A model generated the notes under the pieces. That model worked only from the letters and a program-made list of their open reading frames with translations, made no database searches and was not told where the DNA came from. Position numbers and translations under genes: made by a program. Positions 34,433-43,118 of a DNA stretch of 64,000 bases are shown in pieces. Source of the DNA: Dehalococcoidia bacterium (GTDB taxonomy: Bacteria > Chloroflexota > Dehalococcoidia > Lucifugimonadales > UBA3495); NCBI GenBank assembly GCA_034420695.1, contig DAOULB010000002.1:151644-215643 (forward strand), read 5' to 3'. Every line of letters starts with the position of its first letter. Position 1 is the first letter of the stretch.

Positions 34433-35539
34433 ATGCAGGATTCCGACATCCAGGATTCCCATTTTCAGGTATCCGATTTCAATGAAATGGCTGATCTACC
34501 CGAGGAACTGCTGGGTCCGAAGACGCGGCAGAGGGGAGAATCGGTCGAGGGCGAGATTGTCCGGATAGACGACGAGGGCATTGTCATCAGTGTGGGCCTC
34601 AAGATGGAAGGAATGGTGCCGATGAGCGAGATGCGCACCATTCCCAGGGAGGAACTGGCCGGCTTCAAGCCGGGAGACACTCTCCTGGCTACGCTGGTGA
34701 GCAACCGGGGCCCCGGCGACATGGCCCTCCTTTCCGTGGACCAAGCCCGGGAAGAGCTGTACTGGCGGGAGTTGGAACACTCCTTGGACAGCGGAGAAAC
34801 GGTTGAAGTAAAGGTTACGGGCCACAACAGCGGCGGCATTGAGGTGGATTTCCGGGGCATCAGAGGTTTTGTGCCTTTCTCCCACTTGGCGCCGGCGGAG
34901 GACGGACAAGAGGCAGCCGGCCGTGTTGGCCAAGAATGCTCGTTCAACGTCTTGGAGGTTGACCAGGACGCCGGCCGGTTGGTCCTCACCGAGCGGTCAA
35001 TCTGGCGGCGGCGGCAGGAGGAGCTTCGGCTCCAGAAAATAGCGGACTTGCAGCCGGGGAGCATTATCTCAGGCCGTGTGGTGTCGGTGCGGGGCTTCGG
35101 GGCCTTCGTGGACTTGGGAGGGGTGCAGGGACTGGTTCACATCTCTGAATTGTCCTGGGGCACGGTGAAGGACCCTGCGGACGTGGTTTCGGTCGGCGAT
35201 GAAATCAACGTTTACGTGGTGGCGGTGGATGTGGAGAGCCAACGCATCAACCTGAGCCTTAAACGCACCATGCCGGAGCCTTGGGAGACAGTGCCGGAAC
35301 GCTACCGGGTCGGCGAGATCGTGGAAGGCTCGGTCACCAGCTTGGCCCAGTTCGGTGCATTCGTCAAAATCGAGGACGGGGTGGAAGGACTGGTCCACAT
35401 CTCGGAACTGTCCGCCCGGCGGGTGAACCACGCCAAGGAGTGTGTGTACCCGGGGCAGGCGGTGCGTGTAATGGTGACCGGGATAGACTCGGAACGCCGG
35501 CGGATGAGCCTTAGCTACCGCAAGGCCTTCGGTCTGTAG
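34433..35539 (+). CDS. rpsA: 30S ribosomal protein S1-like protein (four S1 RNA-binding domains)
   Basis: It has repeated S1 motifs: GEIVRIDDEGIVISVG, ...VKVTGHNSGGIEVDFRGIRGFVPFSHL, GSIISGRVVSVRGFGAFVDLGGVQGLVHISELSW and GEIVEGSVTSLAQFGAFVKIEDGVEGLVHISELS. Confidence 0.88.
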   Translation: MQDSDIQDSHFQVSDFNEMADLPEELLGPKTRQRGESVEGEIVRIDDEGIVISVGLKMEGMVPMSEMRTIPREELAGFKPGDTLLATLVSNRGPGDMALLSVDQAREELYWRELEHSLDSGETVEVKVTGHNSGGIEVDFRGIRGFVPFSHLAPAEDGQEAAGRVGQECSFNVLEVDQDAGRLVLTERSIWRRRQEELRLQKIADLQPGSIISGRVVSVRGFGAFVDLGGVQGLVHISELSWGTVKDPADVVSVGDEINVYVVAVDVESQRINLSLKRTMPEPWETVPERYRVGEIVEGSVTSLAQFGAFVKIEDGVEGLVHISELSARRVNHAKECVYPGQAVRVMVTGIDSERRRMSLSYRKAFGL

Positions 35540-35603: not shown

Positions 35604-36701
35604 TTGCCACAGACAGGACTGACGGTCCACAAGCCAAGCCACGCCTACCCTGGGTACACCCTGATAGCCCCCATGGAACGCACCGACGCCTACTTGGTCG
35701 ACATGGAGGGGCGCATAGTACATCGTTGGCCTCTGCCCTACCGGCCGGGGGACTACGGCTACCTGCTGGAAAACGGCAACCTGCTTGTCGCCGGGCGCAC
35801 CGGCCGCAGCCCGGTGAACATCGGCGGGCACAGCGGTGTGGTCATGGAAATGGACTGGGATGGGAACATCCTGTGGGAGTACGTGGAAGACACGCTGCAC
35901 CACGACTTTTGCCGGATGCCCAACGGCAACACCATGGTGCTGGGCTGGGAGACGGTCCCCAAGGAGATGATAGACCAGGTCAGGGGCGGAGTGCCCGACA
36001 GCGAGCCCGAGGCCGGCATCTGGTGTGACTACTTCCGGGAGATAACCCCCGGCGGCGAAATCGCCTGGGAGTGGCACGCCTACGAGCATCTGGACACGGA
36101 AACCGACGTCATCTGCTACCTGCACCGCCGGGATGAGTGGACCCACACCAACACCTGCGAAGTGCTTCCCGACGGAAACATTCTGACCAGTTGGAGGCTG
36201 CTGGACACCGTGGCCATCTTGGACAAGGCCACCGGGGACTTTTCTTGGAAGTGGGGCCGGGGGGAACTGGGCCACCAGCACGACCCCACCCTGCTGGACA
36301 ACGGCAACATACTGATTTTCGACAACGGCTGGCACGCGATTACGGCCCCAATGCCCGGCTCCCGGGTGATAGAGGTCAACCCCGGCACCAACCGGATCGA
36401 GTGGGAGTACAAGACCCGTCCGCCTTGGAACTTCTTCAGCGCCTTCATCAGCGGGGCGCAGCGGTTGCCCAATGGCAACACCTTGGTGTGTGAGGGCATG
36501 ACCGGCAGGGTCTTTGAGGTTACCCGGGAGGGTGAGATGGTCTGGGAGTTCACCAACCCGTTCTACGGACCGGACGACAGGTTCGACCGGGTGAACCGGC
36601 TCTTCCGGGCCTACCGCTACGGTCCCGACTTCCCAGGTTTCAAGGGCAAGAGCCTCGATCCCTCAGGTCATTCCTGGAGCAGCCACCTCTACAGCCGCTG
36701 A
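35604..36701 (+). CDS. Arylsulfotransferase (ASST)-family beta-propeller protein
   Basis: ...YPGYTLIAP......YLVDMEGRIVHRW.......GDYGYLLENGNLL...HHDF.RMPNGNTMVL...H.N....LPDGNIL.S.......I.D..TG...W.WG....HQHDPTLLDNGNILIFDNG... is the typical ASST repeat pattern. The TTG start follows AAGGAG. Confidence 0.7.
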   Translation: MPQTGLTVHKPSHAYPGYTLIAPMERTDAYLVDMEGRIVHRWPLPYRPGDYGYLLENGNLLVAGRTGRSPVNIGGHSGVVMEMDWDGNILWEYVEDTLHHDFCRMPNGNTMVLGWETVPKEMIDQVRGGVPDSEPEAGIWCDYFREITPGGEIAWEWHAYEHLDTETDVICYLHRRDEWTHTNTCEVLPDGNILTSWRLLDTVAILDKATGDFSWKWGRGELGHQHDPTLLDNGNILIFDNGWHAITAPMPGSRVIEVNPGTNRIEWEYKTRPPWNFFSAFISGAQRLPNGNTLVCEGMTGRVFEVTREGEMVWEFTNPFYGPDDRFDRVNRLFRAYRYGPDFPGFKGKSLDPSGHSWSSHLYSR

Positions 36702-40903: not shown

Positions 40904-42094
40904 ATGATCAGATTTTTCACGGCTGGTGAGTCCCACGGACCGGGACTGGTGATAATAGTCGAAGGCGTGCCCGCAGGCTTGCCCTTGGACGAAGAGTACA
41001 TTGCAGGTCAGTTGGCCCGGCGGCAGCGGGGGTACGGCCGCGGTGGCCGGATGCTCATCGAACAGGACCGGGCGCAAATCCATTCGGGTGTGCGCCACGG
41101 AACGACGTTGGGAAGCCCCATCGGAATGACCCTGGAGAACAAGGACTGGGTCAACTGGCAACAGTCCATGTCGGTGGGAGAAGTGCCGGAAGAAGACTAC
41201 GACCCCGGCGACCCCCGGTCACAGCGGGTTACCCGCATCCGGCCCGGCCACGCCGACTTGCCAGGGGTGATGAAGTACGGGTTCGATGACGTGCGCAACG
41301 CGCTGGAACGCTCCAGCGCCCGGGAGACGGCGGCCAGGGTTGCCGCCGGGGCCGTAGCGGTGAAAATGTTGGAGCAGTTCGACGTACGCCTTCACAGCCA
41401 TGTGATATCCATTGCGGGAGTATTCGCCAACCCCCCTGAGTCCATCGACTGGGAGGCCGTTGAAGAGTCGCCGGTGCGCTGCGCCGACCCCACGGCAAGC
41501 AAGTTGATGATGGCCGAGATCGACGCCGCCAAGGAATCTGGGGACACCGTCGGCGGCACTGTTGAGGTCATAGCGGAAAACGTCCCCATTGGCCTTGGCT
41601 CCCACGTACACTGGGACCGGAAGATCGATGGTCAGATTGCCCAAGCCTTGATGTCGATCAATGCAGTCAAGGCCGTTGAGGTGGGTCCCGGCTGGGAGAT
41701 GGTGCAGAAGCGGGGATCCCAAGTGCATGATGTAATCGAGCCTGTTACCAACCCGGATCATCCTTGGCAGAGGAAAACAAACCGCTTGGGTGGCACCGAG
41801 GGAGGCATGACCAACGGAATGCCCTTGGTGGCCCGTTTCGGTATCAAGCCCATTGCCACCATGTTGAATCCCCTCCCCTCGGTGGACTTGGACACCGGGG
41901 AAGGTGTGCAAGCCCACTACGAGCGGTCCGACATCTGCCAAGTCCCGCCCGCCGGGGTGATAGGAGAAGCCATGGTGGCATTGGTGCTGGCGAACTCCTT
42001 CGCTGAAAAGTTCGGCGGCGACTCCATCCCCGAAATGGACCGCAACCTCCGCAACTACCTCAAGACGGTGGGACCCCGCCGGGTCTTCCAATAA
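40904..42094 (+). CDS. aroC: Chorismate synthase
   Basis: MIRFFTAGESHGPGLVIIVEGVPAGL...RRQRGYGRGGRM...RPGHAD...ERSSARETAARVAAGA. Confidence 0.96.
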   Translation: MIRFFTAGESHGPGLVIIVEGVPAGLPLDEEYIAGQLARRQRGYGRGGRMLIEQDRAQIHSGVRHGTTLGSPIGMTLENKDWVNWQQSMSVGEVPEEDYDPGDPRSQRVTRIRPGHADLPGVMKYGFDDVRNALERSSARETAARVAAGAVAVKMLEQFDVRLHSHVISIAGVFANPPESIDWEAVEESPVRCADPTASKLMMAEIDAAKESGDTVGGTVEVIAENVPIGLGSHVHWDRKIDGQIAQALMSINAVKAVEVGPGWEMVQKRGSQVHDVIEPVTNPDHPWQRKTNRLGGTEGGMTNGMPLVARFGIKPIATMLNPLPSVDLDTGEGVQAHYERSDICQVPPAGVIGEAMVALVLANSFAEKFGGDSIPEMDRNLRNYLKTVGPRRVFQ

Positions 42095-42125
42095 GGGGGA
42101 TGGGTCTCCGGCGCGCACAGGGCGG

Positions 42126-42153
42126 TTGACTTCCGGGATTTAGCGGTTAAAAT
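42126..42153 (+). promoter_or_regulatory. Sigma70-type promoter for the SelW-like selenoprotein gene
   Basis: TTGACT (42126-31), a 16-nt spacer, then TAAAAT (42148-53). GGAGG at 42174-78 lies 6 nt before the ATG at 42185. Confidence 0.55.
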
Positions 42154-42184
42154 TCAATTATCTTATTTCCTATGGAGGCCCTTA

Positions 42185-42466
42185 ATGGAAGGGAAAGTTC
42201 AGGTTGAGATCACCTACTGCGTAGCTTGACAGCACTTGGGAACTGCCACGTGGATGGCAAACGAGTTCTTTAAGGCCTTTGGACCCGACGTTTCGGTAGC
42301 TATCTCCCCCAGGGGACAGGGCATCATGGAAGTCTTCCTGGATGGCGAGAGGATCTTCGACAAGAAGGGCGAAGGCGATATCTTCCCCGACCTGAAGCGG
42401 GTCAGGGCAATGACGCAGCAAATTTCCAGCAAGATCAACAGCCTGGAGCCTGCCCCCGCCGACTAA
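42185..42466 (+). CDS. SelW/Rdx-family selenoprotein with an in-frame UGA (Sec) at 42227..42229
   Basis: Reading upstream of ORF 42236..42466 in the same frame gives ATG(42185) MEGKVQVEITYCVA-TGA-QHLGTATWMANEFF... This is the Rdx-family IxYCxxU motif followed by ...GIMEVFLDGERIFDKKGEGDIFPDLKRV. An RBS and promoter lie upstream, and a hairpin starts 11 nt after the UGA. Confidence 0.7.
42240..42268 (+). promoter_or_regulatory. Candidate bacterial SECIS hairpin
   Basis: GAAC (42240-43) pairs with GTTC (42265-68). TGCCA (42244-48) pairs with TGGCA (42055+200=42255-59) around the apical loop CGTGGA. There is a 5-nt 3' internal loop. The structure begins 11 nt downstream of the UGA. Confidence 0.5.
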
Positions 42467-42497
42467 CCGGGCCTGAGCCTGTGAACCGGGAACCAAG

Positions 42498-42525
42498 AGA
42501 GCCCCTCTCTTAAAGGAGGGGCTCT
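42498..42525. terminator. Possible bidirectional terminator hairpin between the convergent selW-like gene and tmk (overlaps the tmk 3' end)
   Basis: AGAGCCCCTC (42498-507) pairs with GAGGGGCTCT (42516-25) as 10 bp around an 8-nt loop. There is no clear T-tract on either side. Confidence 0.35.
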
Positions 42526-43118
42526 ACTCTTGTCCAGATCTCCCTTGAGAGCTGTCTTACACTGAGCGAGCCGGCCAGCACCAACCAGCAGGAAGGTTCC
42601 CTTTCGGCTTGGGCCCAATACCCCTTGCGCACCCTTTGCTGGAACTCCAATGGGGCAGAGTCGAAGTTGTCCATAGGGGCAGCAGACTCAGGGTCTCCTC
42701 TGAGGGCTGCCGTCTCGGGAGATAGGTCCAACAGGATTGTAAGGTCGGGCGCCAGCCCTGCCGTGGCCTCCCGGTTGACCTGCTCTATCAAGTTAAAGTC
42801 TAACCCCCGCCCGTAGCCTTGGTAAGCCACTGTAGAGGCACTGAACCGGTCGGCGACGACTATTTTGCCTTCTGCGAGTTCCGGACGTATAACTTTTTCC
42901 ACCAAGTGGGACCTGGCAGCGGAAAAAAGGAACAGTTCGTCCAAAGGACTGAGGCCGGGCTGGGTTTTGACCCAACGTCGGATTGTTTCTCCCAGGGGAG
43001 TGCCGCCGGGCTCCCGGATTCCTCGCGTCCGTCTGCGTGCGCTTTGCAGGCGACGCAATAGGGCACGCGCCTGCGTGCTCTTACCAGCCCTGTCGATCCC
43101 CTCGAATACTATGAACAC
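42510..43118 (-). CDS. tmk: Thymidylate kinase
   Basis: (M)FIVFEGIDRAGKSTQ...REPGGTPLGE.IR...DRF..S..AYQG.GRGL. The start codon is GTG. Confidence 0.93.
   Translation of the reverse strand: MFIVFEGIDRAGKSTQARALLRRLQSARRRTRGIREPGGTPLGETIRRWVKTQPGLSPLDELFLFSAARSHLVEKVIRPELAEGKIVVADRFSASTVAYQGYGRGLDFNLIEQVNREATAGLAPDLTILLDLSPETAALRGDPESAAPMDNFDSAPLEFQQRVRKGYWAQAEREPSCWLVLAGSLSVRQLSREIWTRVEPLL

Follow-up and report, generated by a model that had tools for sequence, protein, structure and literature searches.

A probable SelW-like selenoprotein gene of the Rdx family, cut short at its in-frame UGA in a Dehalococcoidia genome

In a window of 64,000 nucleotides from a Dehalococcoidia bacterium (i.e. 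the whole stretch of DNA analysed here; contig DAOULB010000002.1, positions 151,644 to 215,643), the locus 42185-42466 very probably encodes a selenoprotein of the bacterial 'SelW-like' type, a 93-residue member of the Rdx (SelW/SelT/SelH) family in which a UGA codon would be read as selenocysteine (Sec). Because the codon of the active-site Sec is the UGA 'stop', gene finders drop the first 23 residues of this protein. This reading draws on comparative sequence data, on family and structure searches and on the gene content of the genome from which the window derives.

Gene structure and flanking signals

The frame of the gene runs on the forward strand from an ATG at 42185-42187 through the in-frame TGA at 42227-42229 to a TAA stop at 42464-42466. 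Around the UGA it reads M-E-G-K-V-Q-V-E-I-T-Y-C-V-A-TGA-Q-H-L-G-T-A-T-W-M-A-N-E-F-F and then stays open up to the TAA; the features of the locus are collected in Table 1. In the mechanical ORF list, the gene begins at the TTG at 42236 and is 76 aa long. A first-pass annotation of this DNA had pointed to this start and to the ATG and in-frame UGA upstream of it, as well as to a GGAGG 6 nt before that ATG and a TTGACT-N16-TAAAAT promoter, and all of these are found in the sequence.

A purine run of the GGAGG/GAGGAG type stands at a similar distance 5′ of the ATG in most of 47 related loci (see below), as judged by eye and left untallied. Scanning the region for promoters returned two promoter-like sites, against 0.2 expected from shuffles. 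The one at 42126-42153 is a consensus match alone, and the upstream region in which it lies, with about 43% column identity in the relatives, is not conserved.

Table 1. Features of the SelW-like locus in the window
Feature	Coordinates	Strand	Basis
Promoter-like TTGACT (-35), 16-nt spacer, TAAAAT (-10)	42126..42153	+	Consensus scan, 10/12 positions
Shine-Dalgarno GGAGG	42174..42178	+	6 nt 5′ of ATG 42185, direct reading
SelW-like/Rdx selenoprotein CDS (probable), 93 aa	42185..42466	+	Translation MEGKVQVEITYCVAUQHLG...PAPAD, TAA 42464-66
Redox motif Cys12-Val-Ala-Sec15 (TGC GTA GCT TGA)	42218..42229	+	Alignment with CxxC of 2oka, 2obk, 2fa8; model
UGA probably read as selenocysteine	42227..42229	+	In frame in 48/48 sequences; Sec machinery in genome
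Window-specific outer stem GAAC (42240-43) / GUUC (42265-68)	42240..42268	+	MFE fold of window sequence
Conserved SECIS core (candidate): stem UGCCA/UGGCA (42244-48 with 42255-59), loop CGUGGA (42249-54)	42244..42259	+	RNAalifold, covariation
Strong inverted repeat between selenoprotein gene and convergent tmk	42494..42532	.	Fold -33.8 kcal/mol, z = -2.4

Downstream, the gene converges with tmk (ORF 42510-43118, minus strand). The inverted repeat at this junction has a 10-bp G+C-rich core and overlaps the 3′ end of tmk including its stop codon, and it is likely to be a terminator hairpin that both genes share in a bidirectional manner. A terminator scan made no call at 42494-42532 or elsewhere in the scanned region, missing the repeat because it is without a T run.

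The product belongs to the Rdx family

For all family searches, the UGA was read through as Cys. The full 93-aa product matches the Pfam Rdx profile (PF10262) with an E-value of 4.8e-15 and 56 bits (cut-off 22.6) over profile positions 1-68 of 74, whereas the truncated 76-aa ORF reaches 3.2e-08 over positions 14-68 and thus loses profile positions 1-13. The full product also exceeds the cut-off of the NCBIfam model TIGR02174 'CXXU_selWTH' (38.1 versus 34.2 bits). Among solved structures, the best sequence matches are six bacterial SelW-related proteins (2oka, 2obk, 2fa8, 2ojl, 2p0g and 3dex), whose I-T-Y-C-T-Q-C matches I-T-Y-C-V-A-U of the window gene position by position, and therefore the UGA column corresponds to the second redox Cys of the CxxC motif. 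An alignment with homologs at precisely this column had been suggested beforehand, and it is the second Cys of CxxC in the solved bacterial structures on which it falls.

An AlphaFold2 model built from an alignment of 43 orthologs (mean pLDDT 89.1, pTM 0.80) predicts a strand at residues 5-12, a helix at 18-35, three further strands and a helix at 70-86, and it places C12-V-A-U15 between the first strand and the first helix. The predicted structure would thus be a thioredoxin-like fold with the order strand, helix, three strands, helix, as required for the Rdx family. In a Foldseek search against the PDB, each of the first 22 matches is a SelW-related protein or mouse SelW (2npb), with TM scores of 0.72-0.90, and thioredoxins rank lower in the list than these. 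The assignment to the SelW/Rdx family with its I.YC..U motif, which the first-pass annotation had made from the letters, is hence one on which the Pfam Rdx match from position 1, TIGR02174, the PDB alignment and the structure model agree.

The UGA is conserved among orthologs

Relatives of the gene were collected from one-genome-per-species contigs, yielding 47 related loci, all of them labelled Dehalococcoidia, Chloroflexota or SAR202. Their proteins share 64-86% identity, which rules out near-identical strains. Synteny is kept as well, with a convergent tmk on the downstream side in 37 of the 47 loci and an aroC on the upstream side in 19, and the loci are therefore considered orthologous. 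Every one of the 47 carries the in-frame sequence MEGKVQ[LIV]EITYCV[PSA]-TGA-QH, so that, with the window included, all 48 sequences keep the TGA in frame. No Cys-form orthologue occurs among the 47 species, i.e. every orthologue examined is of the Sec type. One database relative, P0013, shows Arg at the Sec column; it was considered as a genuine non-Sec form and set aside as a low-quality sequence that has several other odd substitutions.

Codons 1-14, which precede the UGA, display the classic signature of coding sequence, which shows them to be translated. Mean column identity within them is 0.945 at the first codon position, 0.996 at the second and 0.693 at the third, and conservation collapses upstream of the ATG, where the 42 nt preceding it, if divided into a pseudo-frame, give 0.436, 0.429 and 0.409. 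Since coding conservation and the TGA are both kept in 47 of 47 orthologous loci, neither a nonsense mutation nor a leader ORF explains the arrangement.

These data bear directly on the reading that the UGA is a true stop, in which case a mini-ORF of 14 leader codons would end at 42229 and the real protein would start at the ATG at 42254 or at the TTG at 42236. Such a protein is what the ORF list with its start at 42236 describes, and it is also what public gene calls describe for most relatives: among the best matches listed, most are 70-71-aa fragments that begin with MANEFF, and a few read W at the UGA. Yet the truncated product would be left without strand 1 and without CxxU/CxxC, and the Rdx profile recognises it only from position 14. 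The 14 upstream codons, for their part, are conserved as protein with variation at third positions across 47 species, and they align with the N-termini of the solved homologs. Moreover, the ATG at 42254 has no purine-rich ribosome-binding site before it and is itself located inside the hairpin described below. We consider termination at this UGA very improbable. Homologs that start after the UGA, which had been raised beforehand as an observation to look for, were not encountered: 47 of 47 encode the same 14 residues upstream of the conserved TGA.

A conserved hairpin downstream of the UGA

If the UGA is decoded as selenocysteine, as we propose, a bacterial SECIS element would be expected in the mRNA just downstream of it. 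To look for conserved structure, the segment from the TGA to +57 was aligned for the 48 sequences, which required no gaps. RNAalifold finds a single consensus helix in this alignment, pairing columns 18-22 with 29-33 (42244-48 with 42255-59 in the window), and 100% of the cells pair. The outermost of these pairs, 18-33, occurs as C-G (43 sequences) or as U-A (five) and is nowhere broken, with both sites being synonymous third positions. The U-A pair is found in the window and in a separate low-GC group, whereas L022 and L067, the relatives closest to the window, show C-G; this change has therefore had at least two origins. In addition, two fourfold-degenerate sites of the element, the third position of GCC at alignment column 21 and that of ACG at column 24, show no variation among the 48 sequences. 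Variation in the stem is confined to this one of the five pairs; the other four are invariant, which is partly forced by the conserved A-T-W-M-A peptide. The palindrome CACGTG is found inside the invariant hairpin core, at 42247-42252.

The published model of the bacterial SECIS element allows loops of 3-9 nt on stems of 4-16 bp and demands an MFE of -7.5 kcal/mol or lower (PMC13188914 Fig. 2A), a spacing of 16-37 nt between UGA and loop, and a G in the first two loop positions, with a loop of the form N1-G-[G or U]-N-N2-N in which N1 and N2 are able to pair (PMC13188914). The window hairpin has a 6-nt loop, C-G-U-G-G-A, whose C and G are able to pair, on a stem of 5 bp; its UGA-to-loop spacing is 19 nt and its MFE -13.3 kcal/mol. 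The candidate at 42244-42259 thus falls within the published constraints, and when the hairpin is enforced, 47 of the 48 sequences reach an MFE of -7.5 kcal/mol or lower.

Folded as a single sequence, 42227-42290 has no excess stability over shuffles (z = +0.25), and it is for this reason that the case for the hairpin is built on comparative data. A scan of 42000-42700 against Rfam detected no SECIS family and returned two sub-threshold chance matches, which lie over the downstream inverted repeat. The first-pass annotation had described a bipartite hairpin in a SECIS-like position. The letters are indeed in place, the hairpin stands at the right distance from the UGA with the right loop, and the TGCCA/CGTGGA/TGGCA core is conserved, but the lower GAAC/GTTC stem is not: in the consensus of the relatives, two of its four pairs (A16-U40 and C17-G39) can form. 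Accordingly, only the inner stem is retained as the element.

A competing fold also has to be weighed. The fold of lowest free energy in most relatives is a bulged 9-bp hairpin with a CAC triloop, which uses the same bases as the proposed hairpin, and the median pair probability of the latter in the relatives is 0.09. The CAC-triloop hairpin was considered as a SECIS element in its own right and rejected: some sequences cannot form all of its outer pairs, with as many as 10 of 42 failing at a single one, the window sequence does not form three of the nine pairs, and the triloop contains no G. It is possibly a competing conformer.

The genome encodes the selenocysteine pathway

The genome of the window comprises 61 contigs and 3.43 Mb and is 95% complete. 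It was searched for the four components of Sec decoding, and selA, selB, selD and tRNA-Sec all score above their curated cut-offs (four of four). SelA is found with 543 bits, selB with 323 bits (351 bits with its C-terminal match), and the tRNA-Sec scores 71 bits and is called tRNA-SeC with the anticodon TCA (UCA) by ARAGORN. For selD, the match of 394.8 bits includes one in-frame TGA, and its translated active site, SHCAGUAGK, is that of the canonical Sec form. A genome devoid of Sec machinery, the other observation singled out in advance, is therefore not what is seen here, given that selA, selB, a Sec-form selD and tRNA-Sec are present.

The selD locus (L001, contig C51:146449-147369, minus strand) is itself a selenoprotein gene and has an 8-bp hairpin with the loop GUC 3′ of its UGA. 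Standard gene callers likely truncate selD too.

Apart from its role in Sec decoding, TGA serves as an ordinary stop in the window, where it ends 17 of 42 long ORFs, and a reassigned genetic code is excluded on this ground. The same count is pertinent to the wider notion that the UGA specifies a standard amino acid, be it Trp under genetic code table 4 or 25, or a near-cognate Cys or Trp inserted by leaky read-through. What speaks for this notion is the W at the Sec column in the database entries of some relatives (P0001 and P0006), but the simplest origin of these is gene prediction under code 4 in short contigs. It also has to contend with the complete dedicated Sec pathway and the Sec-form selD that are kept in the genome, with a homologous column that is a redox Cys rather than Trp, and with a SECIS-type hairpin conserved at the canonical distance. 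Like true termination, a standard amino acid at this position strikes us as most unlikely.

Paralogs and distribution in the class

Two further CxxU Rdx paralogs exist in the genome of the window, both assigned to Rdx by Pfam and both followed by analogous hairpins. The first (L069, contig C18 at about 35880-36160, plus strand) encodes 98 aa, MPRSEFGKVEVDVVYCVPUGYYPVATWLATELW..., with an Rdx E-value of 1.9e-15 and 40% protein identity to the window gene; it has one in-frame TGA, at nt 326, within the motif CVPU. Its hairpin, GUCGCCA-CGUGGU-UGGCGAC, combines a 7-bp stem with a CGUGG loop at an offset from the UGA identical to that of the window gene. The second (L070, contig C32 at about 34770-35030, plus strand) encodes 87 aa, MATEKKLELEILYCWDUGHASRAAWMAGE..., with an Rdx E-value of 8.6e-12, an in-frame TGA at nt 315 within the motif CWDU and the hairpin CUGCC-UGGAU-GGCAG downstream. 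The paralog hairpins lend independent support to the SECIS element.

To gauge how widespread such genes are, the class was surveyed in an even sample of 120 genomes, 30 of which have an Rdx gene besides the window's own. An in-frame TGA is present in 11 of these 30, and the remaining 19 have apparent Cys forms, with no stop inside. Of the 11 genomes with a TGA-bearing gene, eight have selA and the other three are the least complete assemblies (54%, 71% and 85%), so that at a completeness of at least 90% selA accompanies a TGA-bearing Rdx gene in eight of eight genomes. Among the genomes with Cys-form Rdx genes, selA occurs in 11 of 19.

Such Cys forms in other genomes of the class are what a pseudogene would call for, i.e. 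a Cys-type Rdx gene inactivated by a change of its Cys codon (TGC or TGT) to TGA, but this explanation, the least credible of the three, is effectively refuted because the TGA is conserved across relatives that are not near-identical, in 47 of 47 orthologous loci of many Dehalococcoidia species and with purifying selection on both sides.

Proposed route to the selenoprotein

With selenocysteine as the preferred reading, translation would start at the ATG at 42185, behind the GGAGG ribosome-binding site. Once the ribosome reaches the UGA at 42227, the mRNA hairpin, with its stem at 42244-48/42255-59 and its loop 19 nt downstream, would recruit SelB together with Sec-tRNA(Sec), and SelB would insert selenocysteine in place of termination. 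The resulting product would fold like a thioredoxin and carry Cys12-x-x-Sec15 where strand 1 passes into helix 1. We infer that it most likely cycles between a selenol/thiol and a selenenylsulfide state, acting as a small thiol-dependent oxidoreductase.

Significance for annotation

By every sequence-level criterion of membership, the gene appears to be a SelW-like selenoprotein gene; it constitutes neither a new mechanism nor a new protein family. Rdx proteins and selenocysteine decoding at UGA have both long been described, so the gain is a corrected annotation, not a biological novelty. Its main value lies in the correct annotation of a protein whose active-site half is absent from most public records of the clade, and the same annotation problem affects the two Rdx paralogs and selD in the window's genome. 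Some relatives are publicly named 'hypothetical protein', others as specifically as 'predicted Rdx family selenoprotein'. P0001 and P0006, the ortholog gene calls with W at the Sec codon, carry spurious N-terminal residues in addition.

SAR202/Dehalococcoidia are a major, abundant lineage of the dark ocean. Restoring such genes would improve selenoproteome counts for this lineage as well as inferences about its selenium requirement. Furthermore, GCCA-CGUGGA-UGGC provides a compact and comparatively supported example of a SECIS element. On a more speculative note, a vertically inherited, Sec-only SelW-like gene, at least three Sec Rdx paralogs and a Sec-form SelD might together reflect an unrecognised, expanded and possibly essential dependence of Dehalococcoidia/SAR202 on selenium, a tentative idea that we hold to be rather less probable than its converse. 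Were it true, this dependence would be hidden because public records stop at the UGA.

Comparison with known systems

At the RNA level, the candidate hairpin resembles the bSECISearch consensus (PMC13188914) in its 6-nt loop, its 5-bp upper stem, the loop G2 followed by U and the pairable loop positions 1 and 5. It differs in that its conserved part is a minimal 5-bp upper stem, the lower stem not being conserved, and in that a rival fold exists.

At the protein level, mouse SelW (NMR structure 2npb) shares the fold (TM 0.75-0.79) and the CxxU redox motif with the window gene product, even though the identity to mammalian selenoprotein W is 17%. The decoding signals differ as well: mammalian SelW depends on a SECIS element in its 3′ UTR and on SBP2/eEFSec, whereas the SECIS candidate of the window gene is located in the CDS right after the UGA and would be read by SelB. 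Much closer are the bacterial structures 2oka, 2obk, 2fa8, 2ojl, 2p0g and 3dex, with 26-33% identity, a common fold (TM 0.76-0.90 among the top Foldseek matches) and the shared motif I-x-Y-C-x-x-[C/U]; these proteins, however, have Cys at the Sec column and stem from Proteobacteria and Actinobacteria.

The closest counterparts are the prokaryotic SelW-like selenoproteins, whose first catalogues came from the Sargasso Sea and GOS surveys (PMC1088965, PMC2398784, PMC1794560). Known since 2005 as abundant marine bacterial selenoproteins, SelW-like CxxU proteins accounted for 48 genes in the Sargasso Sea survey, more than any other selenoprotein family (PMC1088965). They have been recognised in bacterial selenoproteomes since 2006, with Sec seemingly being the original form (PMC1794560), and in Sec-using organisms their Sec forms are commoner than their Cys forms (PMC1088965, PMC1794560). 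The window gene shares with them a length of about 90 aa, a CxxU right after the first strand and a thioredoxin-like fold (here predicted), as well as an in-frame UGA and, downstream of it, a small hairpin whose apical loop contains a G. There is no difference in kind between the two, and the window gene represents the Dehalococcoidia/SAR202 orthologue group of these proteins.
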